Virus record (IMG/VR): IMGVR_UViG_3300045988_141072
Coordinates: 32,001-96,000 of that record
Length of the DNA stretch: 64,000 bases
Strand: one strand, 5' to 3'
Source: a virus
Below are positions 15,003 to 51,293 of this stretch, piece by piece (within the stretch, counting starts at the first letter, position 1; every line of letters begins with the position of its first letter). The position numbers and the translations under genes are program-made. The notes beneath the pieces were generated by a model that saw only the letters and a program-made list of their open reading frames with translations, did no database searches and was not told where the DNA came from.

Positions 15003-15140
15003 ATGAAATTCAATTTTATAGATTGTATAGAATTTGAGATTGATTGGAAAGCTGTAGCAGCGATTGCAGCATGTGTACTTGGTTATGCAATCATAACAGT
15101 AATTCAGAAAGGAGATATACATATTGACAAAAGTAATTAA
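15003..15140 (+). CDS. 45-aa single-TM peptide overlapping the nrdD start
   Basis: AAAGGAGA RBS. MKFNFIDCIEFEIDWKAVAAIAACVLGYAIITVIQKGDIHIDKSN. Confidence 0.3.
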   Translation: MKFNFIDCIEFEIDWKAVAAIAACVLGYAIITVIQKGDIHIDKSN

Positions 15141-18100: not shown

Positions 18101-18393
18101 ATATTCCTGCAATTCTCGAAGTTATTAAATACATTTACGATAATATCATGTACGCAGAACTCAATACAAAGAGTGATTATTGTCAGGTTTGTGGTTATGA
18201 TGGTGAAATAAAAATTGTAGATGAAAATAATGAACTTATATGGGAATGCCCTAATTGTAAAAACAGAGATAAAACAAAAATGAATGTAGCAAGAAGAACA
18301 TGTGGATATATTGGGACAAATTTTTGGAATCAAGGACGTACCGAGGAAATTAATGAAAGATATGTTCACTTAACGGATATTGCGGAGGATTAA
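15124..18393 (+). CDS. nrdD: anaerobic (class III) ribonucleoside-triphosphate reductase, interrupted by an intein
   Basis: N-terminal ATP-cone-like VIKRDCSEVDFDKSKI. C-terminal Zn ribbon CQVCGY...CPNCKN. Glycyl-radical motif RRTCGYIG. Conserved ...PCMG|CRSFLSP split by 371 aa. Confidence 0.9.
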   Translation: MTKVIKRDCSEVDFDKSKISTAILKAMKNGSGIVKPKIADDIANEIEEECKDKEEVSISDIESMVYDKLITKKQRLTAKAYEGYRSIREFQRENENTTDEQISELLDGTSDYWNNENSNKNARLLTTQRDYMAGIISTDITRRFLLPLEVVQAHDDGLLHFHDADYFGQNAITNCSLINLEDMLQNGTCINKVKIDKPHRFITAMTIATQIITAVTSSQYGGASITLTHLAPFVRDSYNSYYKKYIKWGFSDESSKKYASIDTKKEIIDGVQTFNYQCNSMTTTNGQSPFLSVFMYLGETEEYKNELAMIIEEFLNQRILGMKNEVGVYVTQAFPKLLYILEEDNITPNSKYWYLTELAAKCTAKRMVPDYISEKKMKEFKENNCFPCMGCVDGKELVTYKIKNNLYVESFERMWRRLSDSFEIKHQYSETNPNLYMDLSEVTIYDTEKGFVDTKRIIRNVSSEWLDVDFSNGRRLLCTTDHPLTLRNGRNVHASELKLGDKILINSNQYNEESILFNIDKAWLLGFMLCDGCYQNNHVFASIAATGEDEIEEKFSNTFTKYFGLNVKTILQERGKKGTYKDLCAISDNNGGIQYVANYFTSKFGGINKVNRQIPNEVFSWNYEAKLAFFAGMIDADGYINSHQNEKNFSTVQIGSTNKELALQQMALAQSIGIPAKIYHNHYTKKNPELIRYRVEFYPTDELINYIVCKKKCDNYIESNVSGYAIESEVIKINPIHKEMYSYDVTTSSEHFEVSGIYSHNCRSFLSPYKDENGNYKFYGRFNQGVVTINLVDVALSSEGDFDKFWQLMEQRTELCHKALKCRHERLEGTLSDVAPILWQDGAFARLKKGEKIDKLLHGGYSSISLGYAGLYECVKYMTGKSHTDHSIGHDFGIKVMEFLNNKCEQWKSEENIGYSTYGSPIESTTYKFANCLKKRFGIIEGITDRDYITNSYHIFVKEPINAFDKLYIESEFQSLSLGGSISYVETSDMTQNIPAILEVIKYIYDNIMYAELNTKSDYCQVCGYDGEIKIVDENNELIWECPNCKNRDKTKMNVARRTCGYIGTNFWNQGRTEEINERYVHLTDIAED
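16294..17406 (+). mobile_element. intein (371 aa) with LAGLIDADG homing-endonuclease domain inside NrdD
   Basis: Cys1 (CVDGKELV). Block B TTDHPL. LAGLIDADG motifs LLGFMLCDGC and FFAGMIDADGY. C-terminal SGIYSHN followed by Cys+1 (CRSFL). Removing it restores the NrdD motif MGCRSFL. Confidence 0.85.
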
Positions 18394-35733: not shown

Positions 35734-38700
35734 TTATCTTTTATTTGCTTGTTGATGAGCATATGAACTAAGACCAGCCAACGCATTAAATACATCATTA
35801 GCTTTTGATAAGTCGTTGATATTTGGCAAAGTAACTGTTCCAATAGAAACATTATTATTAACCATTTTATCACCAGTATTTTTAACCAAGTTGCTCATAT
35901 CAGGTATTTGAATATTGTCTAATATCATTTTTGTTGGATTAACACCAAATTTCCACAAGTTATCTGTAATATCATGTGGTAATATCTGGTCACCAGAATT
36001 AAGTAATCTTAACTCAGCACCTCCATCACCAACTATAGACATTCCACCCTTAGCATATTTTGTACCGGTTGCATATTTAGGAACACTGGCTGTAATCTTA
36101 CCATTCTTATCAATAGAAAAAGTAAGACTGTTAAACATTTTCTTGACACTATCTGACATTCCCTCAGTCATTCCCTTAGTTACAGCTCTAACTGCTTCAT
36201 CCACGGTCTTATACAGAGGTTTGCCATTTTCGTCAAAGAAGTTTACATCATCTTTGTGGTCATTTAGCCAATCTAAAATCTTGTTTAACGTATCGAGTTG
36301 TTCCTGATTATAATAGTCGTCAAGATTGTCTTGTGCTTCCTTAACTGCACTATTATCAGCCTCATAATTAAAACCATAATCCTCGTGATAGATTAAATTC
36401 TTTTTATTTTGTTTAGCACTCTGTAATGCCTGTTGAAGTTTTTCAAGTTCAATGGCTTTAGACTGAGCATCATTAAGGTCATTAATTTTGTCAATTAAAT
36501 CCTGAATTGAATTAATCCAAGGTGTCAACAAATCGTCATAGTTGTTCTCAATTTCTGCCTGTTTGTCAAGAATATCTCCGTCAAGACCATCAACTTCTTG
36601 AAGTTTATCCCGAAGTCCATCCCATGAATCAAAAGTCTTTTTAGAGATACCAAGTTTGCTGATACTCTTATAAAATTGGTCAACAGTAATAGTACCTTCA
36701 CGCATTCCTTCATACAAAGCCTTAAACTGCTTCTTCTGAGAAGAATTCAATCCTTTGTCTGATAACGTTTTGTTAATTTGACTCCATTTTTCATCACGTT
36801 CTTTTTTAAGCTGAGATAACCCATTAAGACCGATGGAAATCTGTTTTGTGATTTGCGATTCGTTTTTAGTATGTCCCTGTGACTCCCAGAATGAGATTAT
36901 CTTTTCATAGCGACTAGAAATAGCGTCAAGAACATTTTTAAACTTCTCGAGATTTTGATACGGTAATTCAGATATTGACTTATTCCATTCTAACTGGTTT
37001 TTCTCAGCATCGGATATATTTTTATCAATATCCCGAATTTTCTGCTTAATATCCTGATATTCATCTGAAGTCTTTGCGATATTATTGTTTTTGAGATATG
37101 CCTGATATGCCTTTTTCTCCTGATTCCATTTGTTAATCTGTTTCTTAGAATTAGAGATTTCTTCCTTATAATCACTCTTGGTTGCAGCAAAACCTTTTGT
37201 CTCATTTTTGTCAATTCGACTCTGTGTTTTATCTGCTTCATATTGTAACAAATCTAAATCGTCTTCTAAGTCAGAAATATCATCTTCCAATTGTTTTTTG
37301 ATAAGTTCACGTTTATTTTGTTTTGTTTCTGTAATGTTGTCTCTAGCACTAGTATACTTATCCCAATATTCCTGATAACTGTCGATTGCATCCAATACAG
37401 ATTTTTGTGACTTTTTACTTTTTCCCTTTTTAGCAGACTCTTTAATTGTTTGGATCGAATAATCACCGCTCTGAATCTTCTTTTTTAAATCAGAAGAAAG
37501 ATTAATGCTGTCGAGTTTTTTCTTGTATTTCTTTGCAGCTATTTCATATCCGTGTAATAAATCATCATACTGTTTTTTCGCCTGTTTAAATAAACCGTTT
37601 TTAGTTTTCTTAGAAGCGTAATCGTTTATCTTGTCAACAGTCTTCTTAACTTTATCTTCTAATCGTTTTAAACGAACCTCAATCCAATCAAACACTTTGT
37701 TAGAGGAAGAAGAATCAGAACCAGAACCAGAGCCAGTTACTTTGGGAAGAGAAAGGTCAATATCAATTTTTGTTTTAGTCTTTTTGCCCTTTTTATTTAA
37801 TTTGTTGCCAACTTGATCCTTTGCCATCTTTTTAGAATATTCGTCAACGGTCATTCCATTAGCTCTTGCAGCTGCTTCTAAACTCGAACCCTGATATTTA
37901 GAAGGATTGTTGTTTACATCTTGTAACAAACTAATATTATTAGCAGCAATTCCAGCAGCTTTAGCAATGTTATTTAACTGTTCTATGGTTTGGGTAGCGT
38001 CTAAATCTGACCAATTGGTTGTTTGATAAGCAAGTTTCGCAAGTTCAATTCTTGCCTTTTTAGAACCATTAGCTTCGCCAAGTAACATAGCAATATCAGT
38101 ACCCGACATTTCTGCCAACTCTTCGCCACTTTTAACAGTTTTCTTTTGTTCTTTGCTAAGAGCAGAATATGCAAGATTTAAACTTTTTGCTTTATTTTCA
38201 AGTTGAGTAGTAACAACTTCCTGTGCATTCTTTATACCTAAATCTTTTAACTGACTTGTATAATAATCCTTGTTTTCTTCTGTAAGCTGAGATAAGAAGT
38301 TGTTAGAATTAACGTATTCACTTGCAAGTTTATTCTGTGCTTCCTGACAGTCTGTAAGAGCAGAAGTAGTAGAACCAAGTGTGTTTTTAAATTCATTCCA
38401 AGACTTAAGTTTACCAAATTCAGGTTCCATACCGCTAAGAGTATCTGCACCGGCAACACCATTATCACGCTTATCGGCATATGCATCCTGAATTGATTTA
38501 ATGCTTGATTTAAGGGAATTTAACTGTTTGGAGCTATCAACCAAATCATTGATTTTCTTAATTGCAACATCAGCATCAATTCCTATTTGTGATAACCAAG
38601 TTTTTGCACCTTCTGTTGCTTCAAAGGTTTTCCTTGTAAGTTTACCTGATTCAGCAAGAGTAGTAAGGTCTTTCTTGGTATTTTTCATACCGGAATCATC

Positions 38701-41038
38701 GTCTGCGTTATCAAGGTCTGACCATGCATTCGCAAATTGCCTTTTTGCATCTATCTGTGATTGTTTAACAAATCTTTCTCTTAAATTTTTAAGTAATGTA
38801 TCACTTATATCTTTTTTAGCAATTTGAATAGCTCCGTCTTCACCAGAGAAGTGCATAAGACGACCAACAACTTCTGCCCAATTTCCATTGTTATCATAAT
38901 CTTGACTTGCACTAATAGCTGCATAAATACCATGTACAAAAGTATCACCAATTTTCATACCTTGAGCATCAAGTTTCTTTAATTCGTCATCTGAAACTTT
39001 ACCATCATCAGCGTATGCTTTTTGTAAAATAGTGTTAATATACTTTTCAACAGTGTCTTTTGATAAGAAAGTTCCATCGGGAAGAATAGGAGTAAATGCA
39101 ACCTCCCAACCATTACCATCTAAGTTTTCTCCAAAACGATCAGAACCACCAAATACAGTATCAATAGAGCCTACTTCTGGATTATAATCCCAACTTGCTA
39201 ATGCATCAGCATAAGTTTGTTTAAGCTCATCTGACCAATGGATAATTGTACGCTTATCCATATCAACGTTACCAAATTGCGATAATTTGTTTTTCTTAAT
39301 TGCATCTGCATAATCATCAAGTCCCCAATCAGAAATTTTCTGATATTCATCTTCGAGATTTTGTTGTGCTTCCTCAAATTTTTTTATTTGCTTTTGGGTA
39401 GCATTATTCTTAAAATCATTAATTATATTCTCGTCTATATTAGAAAAATCGGTTATGCTTTCTATTTCTTCATATTTTTTTAAAAGTTTCTGATAGTGCT
39501 TAGATTTTGTTGAAGCATATTCATTAACAGTGTCATCCAAACTATCTTGTGATTTTTTAGAACCTTCATCTATTCCGGAAAATAAATCATCAAAAACAGC
39601 CTTTCCACCGGATACAGTTTTGTTAATATCCTTAACCTTGTTTTTTACTGCGTTAAGATTTTTCTTTGCCGATTCGACACCTTTTCCTGAAGCTAATGCT
39701 TTATTATATTTTTCAACAGCATTTGTAGCTTCGTTATACATTTCTCTGGTGTCATCTCTTGACAAGATTTCTGCTTCGGCATATTTTTTTACATTATTTT
39801 TTGCCTTATTAATCTTGTCTTGATCAAAATCTGAGTCATTCTTTAAATCAGTAATCGTAGATTTATAAGAAGCTTTATATTTTAAATCAGAATTAGAAAT
39901 ATCATCAAAAAGGTTAGTCAATTGTTCTAAAATTTGTTCACGAGTTCCATTTGTATCAAGTCCGTAAAATCCATTTTCCGCACGATAAAATCCTAGATTT
40001 TTATACTTACTTACAATTTTTTCAAGCTTTGATATTTCAGAATCGTCAATCTTTCTTGTAACTCCCAAAACTGTGGATCTAATTAGTTCTTCATTTAAAT
40101 ACTTTTTATCTTCTTTGATATTATTATAGTTAGTAGAAACATAATCACTAGCTTTTTTCTTTGAAATTTTCTCTAGTTTACCTAGTTGCTCATCATATTT
40201 TCCATTAACTAAATCAAGTTTTTCAGCTTCATCACCATATTTTTCATTTAACTCATCTTGTATTTGAGTTAACTGTTCTTTGGTTGTTTTTATTTCTTCA
40301 TTAGAAAGAGAAGAATCTGCTAATTTGGTTTTTAATTCCTTATATTTAGATATAGATTCATCAAGTGAAGAATTTTCTTCATTCCAAGATTCGGTGAGCT
40401 CATTAGATTTTTCACGAGCTTTTTCCGATGCATGAACTAGATTATCTATTCCGGTTACAACTAGACTAATAACTTCTCCGATAGCCCATGCAGCAATCAT
40501 GTTTCCTGCCATGGATAATGCTTTCATACCAACGGACGCAGCTTTGGCACCAATAGTCATTTGTTTTAATCCGTTATTATAAGCAATAGCCGATTGTTTT
40601 GCTGCATTCTGAGCATTTTTTACATCATCAAGAGATACTTTTGTTAAGTTATTTTCTTGAACAAATCTTGATTGCCATTTTTCGCCTTCTTTTAATCCAT
40701 TAAAATAATCTTGCCAACTGCTTTGATTTGCATCTACTAATTTTTTCTGTGTCAAAAGTCCATTTAAAATGTCATCTGGATTTTGTTCGTATACAGATAA
40801 ATCTTTTAATTTATCTTGTATATCAGATTTAGTAATAATAAATTTATCACTTAGGTCTTTTTTAATAGAAGAATTTTTCCACGCATTTGCAATATTAGAA
40901 ATTGTATAATCATTTGTTGCGATTAATTCTTCTGAGACTTTTTTAAACCTATTGCCAATATCTTCAAACGATTTTCCAAATATACCAAACTGAGATGAAA
41001 ATGTATCTTTATCACTGTCAAATGTTTTGAATATCGTA
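35734..41038 (-). CDS. tail tape measure protein, downstream piece (putative exon 2)
   Basis: The ORF track starts at a TTG (40755). The same frame stays open 96 more codons, up to the TAA at 41044-41046, with no start codon or RBS. N-terminal hydrophobic segments (GAKAASVGMKALSMAGNMIAAWAIGEVISLVVTG) followed by >1500 aa of coiled-coil-rich sequence. Confidence 0.7.
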
Positions 41039-41063
41039 CTATATTAATACAAGCTGTTTGAAG

Positions 41064-41095
41064 ACTTGTTGAATTTAATTATATGTGATACAATT
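41064..41095 (+). promoter_or_regulatory. candidate promoter for the + strand cargo genes (extended -10 TGATACAAT)
   Basis: TTGTTG ... 17 nt ... TACAAT with TG at -15/-14. Located 25 nt upstream of the 41120 ATG and its GGAGG RBS. Confidence 0.4.
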
Positions 41096-41119
41096 TTCAT
41101 AAATTGGAGGTGTGCAATC

Positions 41120-41602
41120 ATGTTAATGTATTGTAAAAAATGTGGAAGAGTATGGATAAAATTTGGTACTGAAAAAGACAATTGTGATATATGTGATTCA
41201 ATTTGTTATCCTGTGCCAGATAAGTATTTATTGGTCTGGAATGGAGAAATTTATAAAAATAATTTGAATGAAAGCAAAAAAGATCAATTCATAGAAGAAT
41301 GCGTAAAATCTTCGCCAGAATTTGATGAATATCTCTTTAATAATCGAGACAGAACCAAAGCACAAAAATCTGCTGAATATGAACGAGATTTGGCTATCGG
41401 TGATGCAATACGTCAAGGTGCAGATGTTAAAACAGCTTTTCGTAATGGTGGACAAAATATTCCTAAATGTCCTACCTGTGGTTCGACAAATATTCAAAAA
41501 ATCTCCACCACAAGGAGATTGGTAACTACAGGTTTATTTGGATTAGCAAGCAGTAATGTTGGTAAAACTATGCTTTGTAAAAATTGTGGTTACAAGTGGT
41601 AA
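41120..41602 (+). CDS. double zinc-ribbon protein
   Basis: GGAGG at 41106-41110. N-terminal CKKCG...CDIC and C-terminal CPTCGSTNIQKI...GLFGLASSNVGKTMLCKNCGYKW. Confidence 0.6.
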   Translation: MLMYCKKCGRVWIKFGTEKDNCDICDSICYPVPDKYLLVWNGEIYKNNLNESKKDQFIEECVKSSPEFDEYLFNNRDRTKAQKSAEYERDLAIGDAIRQGADVKTAFRNGGQNIPKCPTCGSTNIQKISTTRRLVTTGLFGLASSNVGKTMLCKNCGYKW

Positions 41603-41693
41603 ACAATATCGAATGCATGTTCAGGCTATCCTCATTTGGTAATTAGTGGTAAAATATTCCTATAAAAATAATGTACAGAGGAGGAAGTTTACT

Positions 41694-41999
41694 ATGACAA
41701 CTAATGAACAATGTATGAAAGATATTCTTACTTTCATTGACGAAAACACAAGCGTAAAAGTTAGGACATCTAGCAATAATGATATTGAATTGCGAGCACC
41801 TGGAATTTCATCAATATTAACAGCTTTGAGCAAAGATAATAAATATTCTATTGAAGAAGTTGCTTTTAATCTTGTAAAATGTGATAAATTACATCTTATA
41901 GATGCAAACTTATATACTCAAGGGAATACTATTAAATCTGCTCAAAGTGATATTTATGGTATTACATGTTACGGAGAACAATTTATCAAAGAAAAATAA
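41694..41999 (+). CDS. hypothetical protein (possibly winged-helix, DUF2513/YjcQ-like)
   Basis: AGAGGAGG RBS. MTTNEQCMKDILTFIDEN... The N-terminus resembles the 43244 ORF type. Confidence 0.45.
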   Translation: MTTNEQCMKDILTFIDENTSVKVRTSSNNDIELRAPGISSILTALSKDNKYSIEEVAFNLVKCDKLHLIDANLYTQGNTIKSAQSDIYGITCYGEQFIKEK

Positions 42000-42025
42000 T
42001 CTACTTTTATGTTTTTATCGGTGTT

Positions 42026-42208
42026 TTAAATTTCTGATTCATCATCAGGAAATCTTAAATATCCTGTACATTTTAAGCGATCAAGTGAATTATTTAAAAA
42101 GACTACGGCTTGGAAATAATCCAAGTCGTTTTCTTTGAATAACAATAATAATCCACTATATAATTGTTCTATTTTTTCATGAGTACCAATACTTAATTTA
42201 TTGTTCAT
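42026..42208 (-). CDS. hypothetical 60-aa protein
   Basis: GAGGTG RBS 6 nt before the ATG at 42208. The ORF-track start at 42331 is an unsupported extension. Confidence 0.4.
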   Translation of the reverse strand: MNNKLSIGTHEKIEQLYSGLLLLFKENDLDYFQAVVFLNNSLDRLKCTGYLRFPDDESEI

Positions 42209-42272
42209 AATTATCACCTCATAATAAATTGCTAAAGAGTATACAAAGTCGAAATAGAATAGGAGAACTAAT

Positions 42273-42710
42273 ATGTTATCAGATGAACAATTACAAAGAT
42301 TATCTGAAATCATAAGTTCAGCAGAATACAAAAATTATACAGCCAGCCAGATAAAGGAACAGACATATAAAAATCTAAAACAAAATAATATTCCAGATTT
42401 TGAAAATCCAATAGTAACAGAATTAAAAACTGCTAACAGTAAGATTGATGAATTATCAGAACAGTTGGATTATTCATATACACAACTTAAACAAGCAAAT
42501 GATAAAATTTCTTCTCAGAATTTATATATAAAAGAGTTGAAATCTGATTTAAAAGAAGAAACTGAGAAAAGAGTAATTGCCGAAAATAAGTTGGGTAGTA
42601 AAGATTGGAAAACTGCACTGATTTCGTTTGGGTTTGCTTTACTTGTTTTGATAATAGAACATTGGAAAGACATTTTAACTTTTATACTATCCCTAATACA
42701 CGCAAGATAG
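42273..42710 (+). CDS. coiled-coil protein with C-terminal membrane anchor
   Basis: AGGAGAA RBS. Heptad-rich middle region. C-terminal WKTALISFGFALLVLIIEHW. Confidence 0.5.
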   Translation: MLSDEQLQRLSEIISSAEYKNYTASQIKEQTYKNLKQNNIPDFENPIVTELKTANSKIDELSEQLDYSYTQLKQANDKISSQNLYIKELKSDLKEETEKRVIAENKLGSKDWKTALISFGFALLVLIIEHWKDILTFILSLIHAR

Positions 42711-42783
42711 TAATCCCAACACAATACCCTAAAATAGTTCCTATACCTTGGAAAAATATTTGTCGTTTTATTTCTTTAGACAT
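42682..42783 (-). CDS. 33-aa hydrophobic peptide, convergent with and overlapping the 3' end of 42273..42710
   Basis: AAAGGAG RBS. MSKEIKRQIFFQGIGTILGYCVGITILRVLGIV. Confidence 0.35.
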   Translation of the reverse strand: MSKEIKRQIFFQGIGTILGYCVGITILRVLGIV

Positions 42784-42819
42784 ATTGACTCCTTTCTTTG
42801 AAATAAATACTGTCATTCA

Positions 42820-42936
42820 ATGAACACTTCTAAAATTGGCACAGTAAGTCGTATGATTTCGACCACTATGTTCGGATTAGCAAGTAAGAAAATGGGTAAA
42901 CAATGGCACTGTAATAGCTGTAAGAGTGATTTTTAA
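42820..42936 (+). pseudogene. orphan copy of the C-terminal half zinc-ribbon module of 41120..41602
   Basis: MNTSKIGTVSRMISTTMFGLASKKMGKQWHCNSCKSDF parallels ...IQKISTTRRLVTTGLFGLASSNVGKTMLCKNCGYKW. It lacks the first CxxC and has no RBS. Confidence 0.4.
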
Positions 42937-42969
42937 AAATAGAATAATTCACTTAAACATATGTTCCGA

Positions 42970-43266
42970 CTAACAAAATCCATCAACATGATTTAATGCC
43001 ATTACAACATCGTTATCAACATGGTTCGTTTTATGACCACTAAAATAATCATCATATATTGCATATTCTAATTCATTACGTTGTTCCTTAAACTTATCAG
43101 TGAGAAGCGTAAGAATTTCTTCGACTTCAGAATATGTACATTTGTGATTTTTTAGCATTTGAGAAATTTCAACTGAGAGATACATTGTTTTTGAGATATA
43201 TTTATTATCCAATTTATCACATCCTTTCAATGGAGGTATACTAATGAAGCTTAATCCTGATTGCAT
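42970..43266 (-). CDS. hypothetical protein (start uncertain)
   Basis: ORF divergent from 43244..43684. Internal candidate starts exist. No motif recognised. Confidence 0.35.
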   Translation of the reverse strand: MQSGLSFISIPPLKGCDKLDNKYISKTMYLSVEISQMLKNHKCTYSEVEEILTLLTDKFKEQRNELEYAIYDDYFSGHKTNHVDNDVVMALNHVDGFC

Positions 43267-43684
43267 GAGAATTATACTTAAATACTGTGTAGAACATATT
43301 GATTATAAAGACATTGGTCTTAATCAGTGGCATGAAAATTCTGTTACACTTGCTATGCTATATAATAGTGATGAACTCAAAGAGTTTGAGAAGAAAGAAA
43401 TTATGTATTCTGTAATGAAACTTTATGAGTATAGGTTTATTACCGTATCTAAAATTCAGCCAACAAACGGACAACAATATTTTGACAGTTGTGAAATAAC
43501 AGACGTAACGGTTTATGGTCACGACTTTTATAATTCTATTCAAGAAGATACCATCTGGAATAAAACTAAAAATGTTGTTGGTCAAGTTGGAAATCACACA
43601 TTGAAGTTCATCGAAGATGCTGCTCAAAAAATTGCAATTGAGTCTGCGAAACAAGCTGTAACTATTACGATGATGCAAAAATAA
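43244..43684 (+). CDS. DUF2513/YjcQ-like protein
   Basis: GGAGG RBS. The N-terminus MKLNPDCMRIILKYCVEH is typical of DUF2513-type proteins as I recall them. Confidence 0.5.
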   Translation: MKLNPDCMRIILKYCVEHIDYKDIGLNQWHENSVTLAMLYNSDELKEFEKKEIMYSVMKLYEYRFITVSKIQPTNGQQYFDSCEITDVTVYGHDFYNSIQEDTIWNKTKNVVGQVGNHTLKFIEDAAQKIAIESAKQAVTITMMQK

Positions 43685-43706
43685 TATTTAGATCAAATAG
43701 AATAGA

Positions 43707-43735
43707 AGAGTAGTGAGAAATTACTACTCTTTTTT
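43707..43735 (+). terminator. rho-independent terminator after 43244..43684
   Basis: AGAGTAGT (43707-43714) pairs with ACTACTCT (43723-43730), followed by TTTTT. Confidence 0.6.
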
Positions 43736-43739
43736 AGAC

Positions 43740-43777
43740 AAAAAAGAGCAACTATAAACATATAGTTGCTCATAAAA
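43740..43777. terminator. strong bidirectional terminator (perfect 11-bp stem)
   Basis: GAGCAACTATA (43746-43756), loop AACA, TATAGTTGCTC (43761-43771). A-run upstream and A/T-rich downstream. Confidence 0.6.
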
Positions 43778-44021
43778 GAAATATCTTTTTATATAATTCA
43801 CTGGCTCAATGCCAAATAGCGTTAGGAAAATGGTAATCCTAACATATCAATTCACTGTCCTTATTGACTATTTAACTATGACACATTTATTCTTTTTCGT
43901 CAACAATGTTCTTTTTCAATTGTATTATATGCGATATGAGCCAAGTGTAATAGTTGTGGGCATACTTGATAGAAGAAGAACAATAGAAGAGGAGTAGACT
44001 ATATCGCCGCTCTTTGCTTTT

Positions 44022-44061
44022 ATGTAAAATAAAATGAGAGCAGGTCACACCTACTCTCATT
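44022..44061 (-). terminator. rho-independent terminator downstream of the second repeat pair
   Basis: On the - strand: AAUGAGAG, loop, CUCUCAUU, then UUAUUUUAC. Confidence 0.55.
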
Positions 44062-44089
44062 CTTTCTACTGATGATATTTATCTCCCTG

Positions 44090-44161
44090 CTTCGTGGTCA
44101 CACCTCTATCAGTTCGACTACCGTACCTCGTGGTCACACCTCTATTACGGTATTAATATCA
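44090..44161 (-). repeat. two tandem 36-nt repeats related to the ToxI-like array (orphan antitoxin-like RNA?)
   Basis: Units 44090-44125 and 44126-44161 share C(T/C)TCGTGGTCACACCTCTAT. A third partial GGTCACACCT lies at 44043 in the terminator loop. They share a CTTCGT...TCTATTA core with the 45627-45734 repeats. Confidence 0.45.
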
Positions 44162-44192
44162 TAATAAATATATTCTATGATGTCAATGTTTA

Positions 44193-44918
44193 TCATAAAA
44201 TATTTTTTATTCCCAATATCTCCTTATATTCTGTATCTACATTATAAATTTTAGCTCCTAGTATTTTTGCTAATTTATGAAAATCTTTTTTAACATTCGC
44301 ATTATATCTAAGCATTTGTGATGGAACTATATCTGCTATTTGCAAACCAATGCAATTATCACCTTTCACAGTAAAACCAATAGAAGATAAGTAGTTACTA
44401 ACTTCTTTTTCATCAAAATAAATAGAGCCATTTTGTAAATATCTATAAAAGACATCTAAGACATTTTTATTTTCATTAAAGCAACGTGACTCAACACAAA
44501 TTTGACCATAACCACCTTTATCTCTTAGATAATATGTAAACATATCTAATAAATGATAAAATCCAATATTATAATTATTACCGGCTTTCCCATATCGCAA
44601 TTTAGACATTTTATTATTATCAAAGTAAATACATAAAATATCAAGTTTTGCCTCTGATAGAAGTTTTGCGTAATCATCCCAAAACGGTTTTCTTATCTTT
44701 TCATCTTGTAGACAAGCAAAATCTTTTTTATTCTTTCGCATATCGGTATAGTGAAAAACAATATCGGTACGACCAAAATGTTTTTGCTTTAATTGGTTTA
44801 CAAGTTTTGTTAATTCCTTTTCGTAATATTCTCTCTCAACGACAATTCCAGCAAAACAAAAGTTTGAATAATGTTTATCTGGTTTAGTTTCGTCAACAAA
44901 GAGCAAATAATCAGCCAT
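44193..44918 (-). CDS. DUF3800-family protein
   Basis: GGAGAA RBS then ATG at 44918. The N-terminal LLFVDET acidic motif is typical of DUF3800. Confidence 0.6.
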   Translation of the reverse strand: MADYLLFVDETKPDKHYSNFCFAGIVVEREYYEKELTKLVNQLKQKHFGRTDIVFHYTDMRKNKKDFACLQDEKIRKPFWDDYAKLLSEAKLDILCIYFDNNKMSKLRYGKAGNNYNIGFYHLLDMFTYYLRDKGGYGQICVESRCFNENKNVLDVFYRYLQNGSIYFDEKEVSNYLSSIGFTVKGDNCIGLQIADIVPSQMLRYNANVKKDFHKLAKILGAKIYNVDTEYKEILGIKNIL

Positions 44919-45034
44919 AATATATTCTCCAATCATTAGTATTATAATTCCCCATTATATACCAATAATCGACAGAATACTATTCAGAACGTTTGTTTAT
45001 AGGTGAATAGAATAGAAGAGTAATGAGAAATTGT

Positions 45035-45067
45035 TGCATAATAAAAGACACCTTAGTTGGTGTCTTT
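45035..45067 (-). terminator. hairpin/terminator overlapping the toxN stop codon
   Basis: AAAGACACC (45044-45052) pairs with GGTGTCTTT (45059-45067). The stop codon lies in the loop. The downstream tract on the - strand is U-rich. Confidence 0.45.
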
Positions 45068-45589
45068 ATTGTTTTGGTACATCTTTGCTAATTGCTCCAT
45101 ACCTTTGAAATCAATGCAACGCTTGGAAATAGTATTTTCTGGTTTATCATATTTTAGACTATAAAGCTCCAAAGCCTTAGTACCTAAGTCTAATTTGTTG
45201 ATTGCCTTCAGCTCTGAATCTAACAGATTAATATATCTGCTTTTAGCTTCTTCTGACTCAAAAGACCTGTATGTATCTATTTTCTTTTTCTCAAATTTTT
45301 GTGTACATTCTTTTGGAATTGGAAACATATAATTCAAATTTACGACAGCAATTAGTCTTTTTGGATTTTTGAGATCAAACAGTTTATAGAAATCTTTCTG
45401 TTGTCCCATTTTTTGATGTCGCTTTTGTGGATGAGATACTTGTGTTATATAATATAAACCGTCTTTTTCAAAAAGAACTCCGAAGAATGGCTTATATTTG
45501 TCTGTCCCATAATCTGTTTTTGGTATTCTTTTTTCTACATTTCTCAAATAATCTAAATAATTTTCATTTACATGAATCCATTTCATCAT
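45053..45589 (-). CDS. toxN: type III toxin-antitoxin toxin, ToxN/AbiQ-family endoribonuclease
   Basis: MKWIHVNENYLDYLR..., PFFGVLFE, YYITQVSHPQKRH, VVNLNYMFPIP and C-terminal KRCIDFKGMEQL all parallel conserved ToxN/AbiQ blocks. AGGAGA RBS at 45598-45593. Start at 45589 or 45586. Confidence 0.85.
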   Translation of the reverse strand: MMKWIHVNENYLDYLRNVEKRIPKTDYGTDKYKPFFGVLFEKDGLYYITQVSHPQKRHQKMGQQKDFYKLFDLKNPKRLIAVVNLNYMFPIPKECTQKFEKKKIDTYRSFESEEAKSRYINLLDSELKAINKLDLGTKALELYSLKYDKPENTISKRCIDFKGMEQLAKMYQNNKDTN

Positions 45590-45600
45590 ATGTCTCCTAA

Positions 45601-45625
45601 ATAAAAGGAGCTGTAACACAGCCCC
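45601..45625 (-). terminator. attenuating terminator between antitoxin repeats and toxin
   Basis: On the - strand: GGGGCUGU, loop GUU, ACAGCUCC, then UUUUAU. This is the same position as in ToxIN/AbiQ loci. Confidence 0.65.
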
Positions 45626-45626
45626 T

Positions 45627-45734
45627 TATTAATACGATTTTTTACATGCTTCGTAACATCTATTAATACAGTATTTTTACATGCTCTGTAACATCTATTA
45701 ATACGATTTTACGGCTTCGTAACCGCTATTATAG
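45627..45734 (-). ncRNA. toxI: ToxI/antiQ-like antitoxin RNA: about 3 tandem repeats of 31-35 nt
   Basis: Repeats at 45627-45660, 45661-45695 and 45696-45726, plus a partial 4th. Each contains a hairpin with compensatory changes (AUGUU-ACGA-AGCAU versus CGGUU-ACGA-AGCCG) and an A-rich tract. Confidence 0.8.
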
Positions 45735-45770
45735 AAATCATTTCTGATTTCTTACTTATATTATACACAA
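45733..45770 (-). promoter_or_regulatory. candidate toxI-toxN promoter (-10 TATAAT at 45765-45760) and 5' leader hairpin
   Basis: GTGTATAAT on the - strand. 8-bp hairpin AGAAATCA/TGATTTCT at 45733-45752. Confidence 0.35.
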
Positions 45771-45889
45771 TTATGAGAAAAAATCTATGCTTTTTTTGAA
45801 AAACTTTTAAATTTTTTAAGTCAATAAAAGTCGAAAAAATACGATGAAAAATTGTATCGCATTTTTGCAAAGTATTATATAATTATTTA

Positions 45890-46509
45890 GGGGGGGAGAA
45901 CAAAAGTCCATAGATTTAATTCTGTGGGCTTTGTTTTTATGTGTGTTTCTTTCAAACTTACGGTACACACGAACCCTACTGTTGTCCTATTAACAATGTG
46001 CTATTTAATAAGGTGAGAGCAGTAACACTCTTTTACGCTTTTATATCTCAGTCACGAGAGTAGTACGATAACTACGTATGGAGTCCCTTTTACAAGCTAT
46101 CTTATGATAACTCAAAATCGTTTAGACTCTCTGAACACCTCCATTATAATATTCTCTATTATAATAGAATCCGTTGCTGATTGCCGATTTAGTTCATATA
46201 GAACCGATACTTAGGGTTGCCCCATATATCCGAATAACCTCCATTTCTAGATTTGACTTTTCTTGTTGTCACCAACATCCTTTCGGAATACATTCACGCT
46301 CGCCATTTCTAGCCACGTTGTAGTGTGTTATTTTATATATACGGTATATTTTATTTCTTCCCAGCACTGTGAGATAGCAACTCACAATTACGATTTATTT
46401 TAAAACATCTATAGGCTGACTAGACCTAATCTTCCCAACTCTTGATTGTTATCTTGAGTTAGGTGGGCATATTCAAAACAATAACAACGATTTGAAAAAT
46501 TACGCACTC
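45890..46509 (-). ncRNA. ~620-nt ORF-free structured RNA; putative group I-like ribozyme core at the 5' end of the intervening sequence
   Basis: No ORF on either strand. Many hairpins. P1-like hairpin at 46515-46500. GUUCAGAGAGUCUAAAC (46136-46120) resembles the group I R element. Candidate P3, P7 and P8 pairings (see findings). Confidence 0.5.
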
Positions 46510-49500
46510 ACGTAACATTTACCGATGTTTTTAAAACTAAGACCTGCTGCAATAGCAGCAAAAATATTTGGAATCAAACGCCCATCTTTTATTACAGTAT
46601 CAAGAGCGCTAATTAATTTTCCAGCATTATCAATAGCACCCTTTAAAAAGTCTGATGATAACGCATCATTTGCTAATTCTTCTAGTTTAGCTTTTGTAAC
46701 ATCAATAGAATACTGAATTGATTTCTGATAATTTTCTTGTTCTTTTTGTGCAGAACCGGCAGAGTTTTCGGCTGTTTTATATACATTTTCTAATTGATCA
46801 ATATTCTGCATAACAGAATATAAAACATTGGCATTTCGTTTTCCAGCCAAAGCCTCTCCAAGAGAAGACTGTTCTAAGTCTGTAAGATTATTCCACTCTT
46901 TTCCTATTCCAAGTAAAATATCGTATATTGACTTAAAAGTATTTTCATCTTCCATAATATCAAATCCAGTAAGGGATTTGATCAAATCTCGTAATTTTGA
47001 AGTTGTTTTGGTATATTCATCTGTTTCTTCGCCAAGATTTTGCAATTCTGTTTCTGCACCACGAATACGTGCAGAAAGTGTCTTAAATGTTGTACCGATA
47101 CTGTCTGGATCTTGCACTACAGCATTTGCAGTAGTAACTAAAGCTATACTTTCAGATAAACTCGTGTTTGCAGCATTAAACGAAGCAGCAGAACGTTTCA
47201 AAGCTTCGCCAATACCTTGTGTGTCTATTGCATAGTGGTTCGCAACCTCATTAAATTTGTCAATTATGCTTTCGGCTTTACTTGCATCTAACTGAAAACC
47301 TTGAAGTGTTGAAATAAGATTTTCACTTGCAGTTTCTGTAGACATATTGTCGCCGACATTAACATAAAGCTGTGTCGTTTTCGCTAATTTCTCTGCGTCT
47401 GGAATAGAATAACCAAGTCTAGCCCAATCTGCTTGCAATGATACAATGTTACTAATTGAAGAACCTAAATCTTTTGCATCGACTGTCGCCTGTTCAAGAG
47501 CATTATTTAAGTCCGACTCTGTTCCGTCAGACACCTTTCTTAATTCAGTGACACTTTTATTAATTTCATTAACTAAATTAAATCCTTGCTGTAGATATCT
47601 TATCCAATCTTGCCAACTCAAAAACTGAGCAACAAACTTGCTGTTCATATCAGTAAGACGACTACCAATTTGACTAAAGAAGTTTTTGCCCATATTACCA
47701 GTTGAAGCAACATCTGCCTTTAATCCAGAAAAAGATATTTTAATCTTTTCAATTTCTTGTGCAGTTACTTTACCAGCGTTTTTAAGTTCTTCTGCATAAT
47801 CAATAATACTATCTAAATTCTGCTTCTGAGATGAAGACATATTGGTGTTTTGCGATCTAAAAATCTTCATCTGTGATATAATATCAGCAATCTTAGAATC
47901 TTGTTTAACAAGTTTATTCTCTAACAATTTTGAATCGTCAACTATTTTTTGAACTTCACTATCAATCGCCTTTAAGCGGGCAACGTCTTCTGGTTTTGTG
48001 ATATTAAGCCGCTCAATTTCTTTCATTTTTGAGCTAACTCGCTCAATAAATTCAGGAGTATATTTAGAAGCATTAGTGTATGTAGATAATTTTTGTACTT
48101 CATCATTTTGAATTTTTAAAAGACTATTATCGACTTTTTGTGCATTTTTTTGCTGAATCTCCGAAATAGTTTTATCTATTTTATCCAACTTATCCTGTGC
48201 ATTAGATAATTGTTTAGACGATAATATGGTGGCAGAACCATCTGCTTTTCCCATAATTTCATTTATTGTTTTCAATAATTCTTGGGAATCTTTTTTATCG
48301 TTATTAAATGCCTTGTCATTTGCCATTCGTTTTCTTATAGAAGCATATTCATCTATGGCAATATTTAACTCTTTGAATTTTTGAATTTGCTTGTCCGTTT
48401 TAGGTATTTTTATTTCATCTTTTCCAAAGTTTGTCAACTCATTATCAAGATTATTAATCCCCTTAGTAATAGTTCGAAATCTTTGAGAAAACATATTTCC
48501 ATCTGCGTCAATTCTTGCAGAAAATGTTTTCCAAGTTCCATCAGCGTCTTTTATTTTTGCACTTACCTTTACAAGACCATCAACAAGTTCAGTGTTTACT
48601 GTTTCTCCAAGAATTGTATATCCAGAATTTAATAACTTCTCATTAACTCTATTAGGAGAGTAATTTAAGAAATCTTCTTCTGATATTTTTTTTCTTTTTG
48701 TATATCTATCCTTTTTAGGTGGAGTAGGTGGAGTTGTATTTCCCGATGAAATATTCGATTCTTCTGATGGAAGAGTAGTATCATCTTTTGGTATTTTTAA
48801 TTTAGGAATATTTTCTATCTTTTCTACCAATGGATTTAAAGCATCAATAATTTTCTGAATAGATTTGACTTCAGCCCTTGCAGCTAATTCCATCGTATTA
48901 GCTTCTATCTTAATTGCTTCAGTTTTTATATTAATAGTAGAAGTTAAAGTATTAACAGAATCTTCTACTTTATTAAACCCTTTTGCTTCATTCGTGACAG
49001 AAGTTCCATCTTTTTTTGAATTCATCTGTTCATAGACTTTGTTCATTTTTTTAATGGTTTCTGTGTTGTCTGTTAAATCAAAAGGTGTTTTCATACCGCC
49101 AGCGTTTACATACTTTTGGTACATTTCAACTAATTCTTGAATATCTTTCTTCTGCTTAGATAAATTGATTTTACCAGATTCATCAGCAATGGATTTGAAT
49201 TTAGATTCAATAGAAGACCACTGTTTATCTACATCGCTAATAGAAGCGTCTTTGAACATTTTCCAAAATGTATTACCAATATCTCTTGTCAAATTTATCA
49301 TACGGTCAAGTCGAGAAATAACATCATCAAGAGTAGAAGATACTGATTCCAATTCATTGTCTGCTTTGTCTACAGAAGATGTATCTACTTTCTGGGAATT
49401 TAACTCTTTAACTTTTAAAAGAATAGTATCTATGATATTCTTGCTATCTTCAAGTTTCCCAACCCTTCCAATAGAAGACAACTCATTAGTGCCGCCCATA

Positions 49501-51293
49501 TTGAGATATTTATTATATTCTGAAGCAAGCTTATCCACATTTGCATTTTTTCTAAAAGTACCATCTAATTTGATAGAATTTTCAATTAACTTAGATACAT
49601 TCTTCCACTGCGTTTCGATGTCGGTGACACTACTTACACCCGATGCTCTTGCAAGAGTAGATTCTATATTCTGTAATGTCTTTAACATTGACTGCAATTC
49701 GGTTAATTGACCAAGACTTTTTGAAATTTCTTCTGCAAATTTATCAAATCCTTTAAAACTAAAATTCTTTGAATCTGCTGAATTTAATAATTCATTAACC
49801 TCTACAAGTTTGTCAGCAAGTTCATTAACCTCTTTTTTTGATTCTGCTATTTGACCTGTAATATCAATCTTTTTACCAGAATCGGAAGAAAGAAGTGCGT
49901 CTGATATTTTTTTGAATTCTTTTTCATTAAAATCAAAACATAATTTAATAGGAGAAATTTCAAATATATTTTGAATTTTACCAATTGTTTTCTTAGAATA
50001 AGAAACAGCCTCATCCATTATAGAAGTAAATGTCTTCTTATAAACACCTTCTAAATCAATAACTGCATCTTCACCAGTTTTTGCTAATTCTCTTTGATAT
50101 TTTTTTGAATAAGACTTGCTTACAGTTCCGACTTCACCTTTTTTCTCAGAAGATACTGCATTTGGTGCTACTACAAGTTTTACAGGAGCAACAACAGGAT
50201 TATTATTAAGATCATTCTGCAAATTATCAAGAATAGGAGAGAGCTTCTTCCATAATTCAGACGAAGTGGTTTCAATTGTTACACCAGTTACTAATTCTGC
50301 TGAATTTGGATTGAGTTTATCTGATATTTTTGCGGAAGCTGTTTTAGACGAAGTAGGTTTTATCATTTTTTCTAATTCTTCACGAGTTTTGATAGCCGAT
50401 TCACGAATTTCATCTAAAGTACCCTTTACGATTTTTCCATATTCAGATACTTTTTTGTCAACATTGTCATCAGAAATAAGTATTGAATCGCCAAATGTAT
50501 ATTCCCCTGTTTTATCAGGAATATCCATTAACTGTTGAATAGAATCATGTAAATCGGCAGCTTTTAATTTTAATATATTAATTTGGTTAATTGTTTTTTC
50601 AAAACCAATACTGTTTTTATCAAAGTTTGAAAGTTCCGATTCAGATTTTTCGATTAATTCAAGAGTGTTTTTTAAATCCCTGGCAAGAACATCTAATTCT
50701 GCTTGAGCTTGATCTGTATCAAATAATTCATATTTTGAACCTTTTGCATCACTGAATTCATCTGTACTTTTAAGTAGTTTATTAATTTCTTTTATCTGAG
50801 ATTTTGCTTGATTTACTGCGTTATCATCAAATGACATTAATGAAATGCCTTGATCATTAAGCTTCTTAATCATTGTATCAATAGCATTATTTGTATTCTG
50901 TACATAGTCTTGGAAATCTTTAAATTGACTACTTATTTTACTTATATCAATACCATTTCCAAGTATTTTTATTTGTGAATTTATAGTTGAAACAGCTAAA
51001 TCTAATCTATCAATTTCTGCACGAACAGATTCAAAATTCTTATTAACAGTTTGCTTAAAAGCCTTAAAACTGTTTTTATCCACTTTTCCGATACTTAAAT
51101 CAGAAAAAGATTTTTCCATATCTGCCTTAAAACGTTTTAATTCAGCAATAGTGTTATCAAATTGTGCCTTCATTCCTTTTGATAACTTATCACTTGAAGC
51201 CATCTCGGTTAAAGCAGATTCGTAATCACGAATCATCTGATTAAGCTCATTCTTATAATCAATAGCAATACTTACTACACCATCTTTTGCCAT
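46510..51293 (-). CDS. tail tape measure protein, upstream piece (putative exon 1; as an unspliced ORF it ends at 46500)
   Basis: TP901-type TMP core near the C-terminus (LGSSISNIVSLQADWARLGY...AIDTQGIGEALKRSAASF...SIGTTFKTLSARIRG). About 1200 aa of coiled-coil-rich N-terminal extension. AAGGAGGAA RBS. Confidence 0.8.

Follow-up and report, generated by a model that had tools for sequence, protein, structure and literature searches.

A putative group I-type intron carrying multigene defence cargo in the tape-measure gene of an SPbeta-like phage

The window analysed here is the 64-kb stretch (64,000 nt) between positions 32,001 and 96,000 of IMG/VR virus record IMGVR_UViG_3300045988_141072, and is part of a contig of ~151–154 kb from a large temperate phage. 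Its minus strand carries a tape-measure gene that is divided by a multigene insert into two long open reading frames (ORFs). From the comparison with related loci and from the RNA structure predicted for both ends of the insert, we conclude that the insert (46520..41035) is probably a group I-type self-splicing intron with defence cargo in the tape-measure gene of an SPbeta-like phage. All coordinates are positions within the window. The interrupted gene has the following parts.

46521..51293, minus strand: tape-measure exon 1 (1,591 codons, TP901-type core), delimited by the ORF, the PF10145 match and the break point of the homologues.
41035..46520, minus strand: whole intervening sequence of 5,486 nt; a 5' ribozyme core is followed by cargo on both strands and a 3' hairpin, and the last base is G.
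35734..41034, minus strand: tape-measure exon 2, an open frame of 1,766 codons and a stop, with hydrophobic segments and the C-terminal tape-measure end.

The two pieces are annotated as ORF 46500..51293 (minus strand, 1597 amino acids (aa)) and ORF 35734..40755 (minus strand, 1673 aa). The first matches PF10145 (PhageMin_Tail) at aa 1272–1484 with E=2.8e-22, which bears out the TP901-type core recognised in an earlier, sequence-only reading of this DNA. Past the conserved FKNIG, this ORF enters the intron for 6 codons and then stops (KCYVSA and stop). The frame of the second piece remains open for 96 codons further upstream, to a TAA at 41044–41046, and contains no ATG, GTG or TTG in those codons. 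The sequence-only reading had noted this open and start-free frame correctly, but had judged the absence of start codons very unlikely by chance; start-type codons make up only 2.4% of the exon-2 codons, giving P~0.09 for 96 start-free codons, and start-free runs within exon 2 are up to 166 codons long. The open frame itself is the telling feature, since 93 of the 96 codons belong to exon 2 under the splice model; 96 open codons would occur by chance with a probability of ~10^-3 to 10^-4 (hand estimate for ~30% G+C, with stops at ~7–8% of random triplets).

Exon 1 ends at 46521 with ..AAC ATC GGT and exon 2 begins at 41034 with ATA TTC.., and the joined exons form an open frame of 3,357 codons that reads ..SFKNIG-IFKTFDS.. 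across the junction (marked here by the hyphen). The predicted spliced junction is ..AAAAACATCGGT joined to ATATTCAAAACA.. (peptide ..FKNIG-IFKTF..), or in its longer form, a 46-mer, ..GGTCTTAGTTTTAAAAACATCGGT joined to ATATTCAAAACATTTGACAGTG..; the predicted intron-less site is ..AACATCGGTATATTCAAAAC.. These boundaries are fixed by the P1/P10 pairing described below and by uninterrupted homologues, and they correct three earlier statements: the insert measures 5,486 nt instead of 5,471 nt, the junction ..TTACGT-TACGAT.. was misplaced by 10 nt at the 5' boundary and by 5 nt at the 3' boundary, and the predicted junction peptide is NIGIFK instead of NIGKCYVTIFK.

The end of piece 1, fused to the start of piece 2, served as the junction-region query against 5.8 billion proteins. 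All of the best 120 homologues (120/120) match the piece-1 half only, and their C-termini break just after FKN(I/V)G, continuing as short unrelated tails (KCYVSA and stop, ILELY and stop, RDKMYSL.., LDKNVLNS..). Among 164 related loci taken from viral and metagenome collections, 114 are interrupted at the same codon and 40 are uninterrupted. The uninterrupted homologue L017 reads ..GFKNVG-IFNNGF.. and aligns to the joined exons of the window through FKNIG-IF (E=8e-33), and a second collinear match covers the hydrophobic segment of exon 2. The alignment to uninterrupted tape measures that the sequence-only reading had proposed thus runs continuously across the predicted junction, and two of its central claims hold: the hydrophobic segments are divided between both pieces as it described, and one gene is split by a multigene insert, as uninterrupted homologues read through the same codon and the spliced frame is open. 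Only after removal of the insert does one polypeptide combine the PF10145 core with hydrophobic segments and a long C-terminal part, as in a TP901-type tape measure protein.

At the 3' boundary, all interrupted loci share a DNA motif, AGUAYG followed across the splice site by AYAUUCAAAAC, after which the proteins diverge. The homologue contigs carry SPbeta-type tail modules (YomW, YomU and YonB families) with the same layout as in the window: the tape-measure core is followed by 0.6–1.4 kb without ORFs, then by variable genes on both strands, and then by a second piece of >1,900 aa. Most relatives come from human gut metagenomes, and a scan of a genome-contig collection yielded 2 loci only. 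Against GenBank phages, blastn with the ribozyme core returned only chance matches of ~35 nt, and tblastn with the N-terminus of piece 2 returned no match. This comparison supports a single tape-measure gene of which each ORF is one half, and an insert of several genes that must be removed for the gene to be expressed.

The elements of the predicted ribozyme lie at the two ends of the insert.

45932..46520, minus strand: ribozyme core, ORF-free, ~590 nt, with the P1 loop, P2, P2.1, P3, P3.1, P4–P9, P9.1 and P9.2.
46466..46479, minus strand: internal guide sequence; GUUUUGAAUAU (46479–46469) is the P10 strand and GCC (46468–46466) the P1 strand.
46081..46129, minus strand: catalytic segment P7(5')-P3'-P8-J8/7-P7(3'), GAGUC UA AACGAUUU UG AGUUAUC-AUAA-GAUAGCU UGUAAAAGG GACUC.
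45941..45970, minus strand: P9.2 hairpin GUGUGU/ACACAC; the stem covaries and the loop contains GUUUGAA.
41049..41069, minus strand: 3'-terminal hairpin ACAAGU-CUUCAAACA-GCUUGU with a conserved loop, YUCAAACA; the 3' splice site lies 13 nt downstream of it.
41035..41035, minus strand: last intron nucleotide (omega-G), conserved as G in all relatives whose 3' end is defined.

The intron opens with a hairpin, and ~45 nt further on comes GUUUUGAAUAU-GCC. The guide GCC pairs with the exon-1 end GGU (P1), placing a U.G wobble at the 5' splice site in 11/11 aligned sequences. Directly 5' of GCC, GUUUUGAAUAU is the exact reverse complement of exon-2 nucleotides 1–11 (P10, 11/11), and this 11-mer is found at only these two places in the window. 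P10 measures 8–11 bp in relatives and shows compensatory changes, including G-C to U-A. The first automated P1/P10 scans were noisy, misplacing the guide for the subtype with a 3-bp P1 and picking AT-rich chance matches; the cases used are only those that agree with the conserved 3' motif and a long downstream frame.

In more than ten variants, the P1 strand changes together with the end of exon 1; they include GCCGAC/GUCGGU, GCCAAC/GUUGGU, GCCGAU/AUCGGU, GCCGUU/AACGGU and GCCUAC/GUAGGU, as well as GCCCUCG/CGAGGGU, GCUCAG/CUGGGU, GUUCAG/CUGAAU and GCUCAA/UUGGGU. In one lineage (L043, L084, L114, L150), C.A replaces U.G (ACCGAC/GUCGGC), the exon-1 end C and the guide A having changed together; an isosteric C.A pair is a working substitute for U.G at the 5' splice site. 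The 3' intron ends of relatives (UACG, UAUG, AUAG, UUUG..) differ in the neighbouring bases and keep the terminal G.

The core is conserved in 36 loci, always at the same site (nhmmer match 46520–45940, E=1e-197), has a GC content above that of its surroundings and occurs as a single copy in the window. Its helices follow the canonical group I order P3-P4-P5-P6-P7-P3'-P8-P7'-P9 with the P3/P7 pseudoknot, the 5' strand of P3 being AAAUCGU (46390–46396); P5 has a large extension that bears five hairpins with GNRA loops, and P9.1 consists of three hairpins. A P3 first chosen by eye, UCAAAUCGUU close to the 5' end, was given up for AAAUCGU once the covariation in L034 was seen. The structure was drawn by hand on an alignment of the window and its close variants with the more distant L028, L112 and L034/L127 lineages, and pairs were counted on 11 aligned sequences (143 pairs, 25 helices). 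In this structure 97.8% of the cells are paired, and 45 of the 143 pairs show compensatory changes (among them three in P3, two in P7 and two in P8), against 16.9±2.9 in 500 column shuffles, none of which reaches the observed value, and 3–6 when the partners are slid. The segment GAGUC-UAAACGAUUUUG-[P8]-UGUAAAAGG-GACUC of the window resembles GACUC-GAAACGAUAGAC-[P8]-GGAGAUAU-AGUC of a T4-type td intron.

At the other end of the insert, the terminal hairpin lies 13–40 nt upstream of the 3' splice site across loci. Its stems covary (ACAAGU/GCUUGU, GAUGUU/AACAUC, UAUACU/AGUAUA, UCUC/GAGA), and the U.G pairs in them make sense only on the intron strand. The loop of P9.2 (GUUUGAA) is the complement of the loop of this hairpin (UUCAAAC), and L112 has two matching changes, with GAUGGAA in the loop of its core and UUCCAU in its 3' region; the UUCCAU match overlaps an antisense start codon, and we estimate the chance of an accident at ~2%. 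A long-range pairing between the P9.2 loop and the 3'-hairpin loop is likely from these sequences. By P1, P10, the omega-G and a covarying core, four structural characters read from sequence, the insert belongs to the group I introns. Removal at the RNA or the DNA level had earlier been left open; a guide that pairs with both exon ends, together with a core supported by covariation, points to RNA.

A second ribozyme family, '1b', was observed in the first ~450 nt of the inserts of 39 loci (e.g. L004, L019, L029, L043, L045, L055, L069). It has the guide and 5' helices of the window type and a different 3' half, which did not fit when the P7/P8 scheme of the window type was applied to it. Two hairpin loops of family 1b pair downstream: ACUUAUC pairs with GAUAAG, and the loop of the last hairpin with the next 5–6 nt, this second pairing showing clear covariation.

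Between the core and the 3' hairpin, the cargo spans 45931–41070, where about eight genes are called on both strands. The following features were recognised.

45627..45731, minus strand: 35-nt tandem repeats, 3.2 copies, directly upstream of toxN (direct repeats, Tandem Repeats Finder); candidate RNA antitoxin (antiQ/ToxI-like).
45053..45619, minus strand: ToxN/AbiQ-family toxin; PF13958 E=2.9e-42 (score 145, cut-off 25 bits), PADLOC AbiQ E=5.5e-21.
44193..44936, minus strand: DUF3800 gene; PF12686 E=5.8e-11; DUF3800 recurs in the inserts of relatives.
43244..43684, plus strand: DUF2513 gene, antisense; PF10711 E=4.3e-15, phrog_585.
42273..42710, plus strand: coiled-coil protein of 145 aa with a hydrophobic C-terminus; weak, sub-threshold matches of coiled-coil type.
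41646..41999, plus strand: second, weak DUF2513-like gene; PF10711 E=8.7e-4 (below the Pfam cut-off), phrog_585 E=2.6e-4.
41120..41602, plus strand: double zinc-ribbon gene, 160 aa, antisense; 5' end 85 nt from the 3' splice site.

The sequence-only reading had counted at least nine ORFs with their own promoters and terminators. Its terminators are confirmed by an enrichment (11 terminator-like sites, 1.6 expected), its promoters are not (35 promoter-like sites, 36.6 expected), and the gene count comes to about eight. The toxin gene probably starts at the ATG at 45586 (177 aa by gene call), and a terminator-like hairpin (45627–45605) lies between the 35-nt repeats and the gene. No Rfam family matched the repeats. 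Tandem repeats, a terminator-like hairpin and a ToxN/AbiQ toxin, all present here, are together the anatomy of a type III toxin-antitoxin system acting by abortive infection, and the sequence predicts such a system. Just downstream of the DUF3800 gene, we observed two 25-nt direct repeats, 36 nt apart and 88% identical (44085–44145, minus strand), which precede a strong terminator-like hairpin (44063–44031) and may represent a second small repeat RNA.

The zinc-ribbon gene is found in 23 of the 39 relatives with well-defined intron ends and in all three ribozyme families described below, always antisense beside the 3' splice site, its 5' end 19–80 nt from that site in relatives with reliable ends; in the window the distance falls to 31 nt with the longer ORF from 41066, initiated at TTG. 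The compact intron of L013 (1,082 nt) contains no other ORF of 80 aa or more. The protein has 1,154 homologues and no histidine, is modelled by AlphaFold2 with a pLDDT of 85, and is identical to that of the window on 6 contigs from several samples. It matched nothing in Pfam, PADLOC, PDB sequences or Foldseek, and with no domain or fold match it cannot be called a homing endonuclease. The same C-terminal module (CPxCGSxN..FG..S...KT..CxxCG..W) is found at the end of several unrelated cargo proteins as well.

Three ribozyme families interrupt the same tape-measure codon with inserts of 1.1–9.1 kb and differing cargo. Clustering of the cargo ORFs of at least 80 aa from the inserts of the 39 relatives gave 78 clusters, two of which recur: the zinc-ribbon protein (23/39) and a GmrSD_N/NsnA-like protein (20/39). 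Among the remainder are three MazF/PemK-like clusters, TnpB, an antirepressor and a LytTR regulator. Nearly identical ribozyme cores occur with inserts of 3,999 to 9,071 nt, and type-A relatives carry 3.4–8.5 kb of cargo after a core of ~590 nt, in which up to about ten genes, equipped with terminators of their own, are spread over both strands. In L028, a member of the window's ribozyme family, TnpB (IS605 OrfB, Cas12f-like) directly follows the core at insert positions 612–1730, an IStron-like arrangement that suggests a possible evolutionary link between IStrons and cargo introns.

Further breaks were observed in the tape-measure core of other loci, after ..LAG (L046, L048), NYQK (L078) and ARLRG (L079), and in L074 and L080 the break lies further downstream, close to the main site. 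Homology resumes 2–3 kb downstream in L074, L078 and L080, and these breaks look like extra introns at other sites.

Several observations weigh against a splicing intron in the window. Splicing is itself predicted from the sequence. P1 has only 3 bp (GGU/GCC) in the window's ribozyme subtype and is the weakest among the variants. Non-canonical features of the core are an extra hairpin separating P3 from P4 and the length of J6/7, and its covariation derives from about four independent lineages, so that the cell counts overstate the number of events. Rfam Intron_gpI was not matched at E<=1–10 by the region, the core alone, the relatives or the compact relative. These negatives weigh little, because Rfam release 15 also missed a proven T4-type td intron (L170) in the same search, run with permissive filters and a threshold of E<=1; phage group I introns that contain ORFs can escape such a search. 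No homing endonuclease (LAGLIDADG, GIY-YIG, HNH, His-Cys, PD-(D/E)xK or EDxHD) was recognised in the insert by Pfam, PHROGs or PADLOC. Finally, the insert contains terminator-like hairpins on the sense strand (45627–45605, 44063–44031, 43771–43746, 43731–43706) and three antisense genes, because of which the host RNA polymerase would often miss exon 2.

These terminator-like sites and antisense genes also lend some support to trans-splicing by the same ribozyme. Exon 1 and the core would then end at an internal terminator, exon 2 and the 3' hairpin would lie on a second RNA, and the two would be joined through P10 and the loop–loop contact. Trans-splicing of split group I introns occurs in vitro and in some organelles, and the unusually long P10 (11 bp) and the complementary loops (GUUUGAA/UUCAAAC), with their matching double change in L112, would suit such an arrangement. 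We nevertheless consider it improbable: no promoter-like site is found on the minus strand just upstream of the 3' splice site, and P10 is equally long in short relatives of 1.1–2 kb. Moreover, the late genes of SPbeta form one operon transcribed by the processive phage polymerase YonO, so that read-through is plausible; YonO has no flap domain, on which multi-subunit RNA polymerases depend to pause and terminate at hairpins (PMC5467207). By analogy, a YonO-like enzyme in the window's phage would solve the problem of terminator read-through. The phage genes in the window encode a DNA polymerase III alpha subunit, a RecD-like helicase, an NAD-dependent ligase, a tyrosine integrase and an NrdD with a LAGLIDADG intein, and no YonO-type polymerase was found in these 64 kb. 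The intein (Intein_splicing, LAGLIDADG_3 and Hom_end, ~aa 430–761 of the 1,089-aa NrdD ORF 15124–18393, plus strand) is a second selfish element in this phage.

The 3-bp P1 and the lack of a recognised homing endonuclease would also fit an intron that no longer splices, in a defective prophage whose broken tape-measure gene is kept for its defence cargo. This is very unlikely in our view, given that both exons are intact (1,591 and 1,766 codons), as are every helix and the 11/11 P10, that the exons are intact in >25 loci with the 3-bp-P1 subtype, on contigs as long as ~200 kb, and that the identical zinc-ribbon protein on 6 contigs comes from several samples.

Still less probable are two separately translated proteins, the second from an internal or unusual start, with the gap as a hot spot of accessory genes. 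Gene callers do annotate two genes, and the TTG at 40755 could start the 1,673-aa protein. The homology and the motif AGUAYG-AYAUUC, however, begin ~93 codons upstream of that TTG, where no start codon or ribosome-binding site is found, uninterrupted homologues are continuous at the same codon, and a guide complementary to both exon ends would be left unexplained.

We assign the lowest probability to excision from the DNA before late expression, by IS200/605-like single-strand transposition via the terminal hairpins or by a site-specific recombinase. Hairpins do stand at both ends of the insert, L028 carries TnpB right after its core, and IStrons combine both mechanisms (PMC4227781). The window's insert, however, encodes no TnpA, TnpB, integrase or recombinase and has no frame-restoring direct repeats; the TACG repeat was rejected as a recombination site, as its collapse would shift the frame. 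In addition, the hairpin stems contain G.U pairs only when read on the sense strand, and the logic of P1 and P10 is specific to RNA. Two further candidates were discarded: a group II intron, prompted by GTGAG/GTGCG after the stop codon, because the true boundary lies 9 nt upstream, the intron starts with AAAUG and not GUGYG, and there is no domain V, no group II match in Rfam and no reverse transcriptase among the ORFs; and an intein, because of the stop codon 6 codons into the insert and the genes on both strands.

For the group I intron spliced in cis, we propose the following course. In the lysogen, the late operon would be silent and the cargo genes would be expressed from their own signals, protecting the host cell. 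Upon induction, the late transcript would run across the intron, and the guide (46466–46479) would pair with the exon-1 end GGU and with exon-2 nucleotides 1–11, the 3' hairpin, 13 nt from the 3' splice site, probably docking on the core loop. Two transesterifications would join ..AAC AUC GGU to AUA UUC.., removing 5,486 nt and giving one tape-measure protein of 3,357 aa. The comparisons above show the boundaries, the pairings with their covariation, the conservation and the gene content; from them we infer that splicing takes place, that it does so in cis, and the timing of cargo expression. The conserved core and the conserved 3' module could act as homology arms for the exchange of cargo, which would explain identical ribozymes with different cargo in different phages.

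Extended to all loci, this mechanism leads to a broader proposal that we think has an even chance of being correct, namely that the introns at this site are exchangeable carriers of defence islands. Their cargo bay would hold up to ~8.5 kb between the core and the zinc-ribbon/hairpin module, and long RNA contacts (the 11-bp P10 and the pairing of core loop and 3' hairpin) would reach a 3' splice site up to ~9 kb away or on a separate transcript, so that the lytic cycle bears no cost and the lysogen is protected. If splicing is confirmed, bacterial group I introns would extend from carriers of one endonuclease gene or insertion sequence to multigene islands of ~9 kb, raising the problem of how a ribozyme finds its 3' splice site across terminators and antisense genes. 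AbiQ/ToxN, NsnA/GmrSD-like and MazF-like systems would have a new home inside the intron of an essential late gene, where a defence island is harmless to the phage and moves with it. Confirmation would also affect annotation, as tape-measure genes of gut phages are now called as two and their ribozymes are invisible to Rfam, on >100 contigs of the public collections searched.

Group I introns in tape-measure genes are already known. TMP-IVS1–3 lie in prophage tape-measure genes of the Bacillus cereus group (PMC2504315), and splicing of tail-gene introns has been shown in Cluster J mycobacteriophages (PMC3706429). A claim that no essential virion gene is known to be interrupted would therefore be too broad. 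In those phages, too, different introns occupy the same site in different genomes, and some are without a homing endonuclease, as here; the text consulted on them makes no mention of multigene or defence cargo, and the one size quoted there is 265 bp, for the tail-gene intron of BAKA. Full-text literature searches found no precedent for a bacterial or phage intron with multigene defence-type cargo, and it is this cargo inside a tape-measure group I intron that appears to be new.

In IStrons (CdISt1, BcISt1), foreign DNA likewise lies between a 5' group I ribozyme and a remote 3' splice site (PMC4227781). The window's insert shares with them the 5' ribozyme (core 46520–45932), non-intron DNA before a remote 3' splice site, and hairpins near the ends. 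It differs in having no tnpA or tnpB (TnpB occurs in one relative only, L028), in being a single-copy element at one homing-type site in all loci examined, where IStrons occur in many copies beside a short target motif, and in a variable cargo that is rich in defence genes. It is not an IStron, since it has no transposase, occupies one site in every locus examined and is present once in the window.

The T4 nrdD (sunY) intron has its core wholly 5' of the intron ORF, and its 3'-terminal pairings bring the distant 3' splice site back; it carries one sense-oriented endonuclease gene of <1 kb, whereas the window's intron carries about eight genes in both orientations over 4.9 kb. The ToxN/AbiQ-family toxin, placed after about three tandem 35-nt repeats and a terminator-like hairpin, resembles AbiQ/antiQ and ToxIN, of which the known examples are plasmid-borne or chromosomal, whereas that of the window lies within the intron of a phage structural gene. 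Hot spots of the P2/P4 type and the morons of prophages and satellites similarly hold interchangeable defence genes at a fixed position, with conserved flanks and their own expression signals. At the tape-measure site, in contrast, the flanks are the two ends of a predicted ribozyme within a coding sequence, and the island must be spliced from an essential mRNA.

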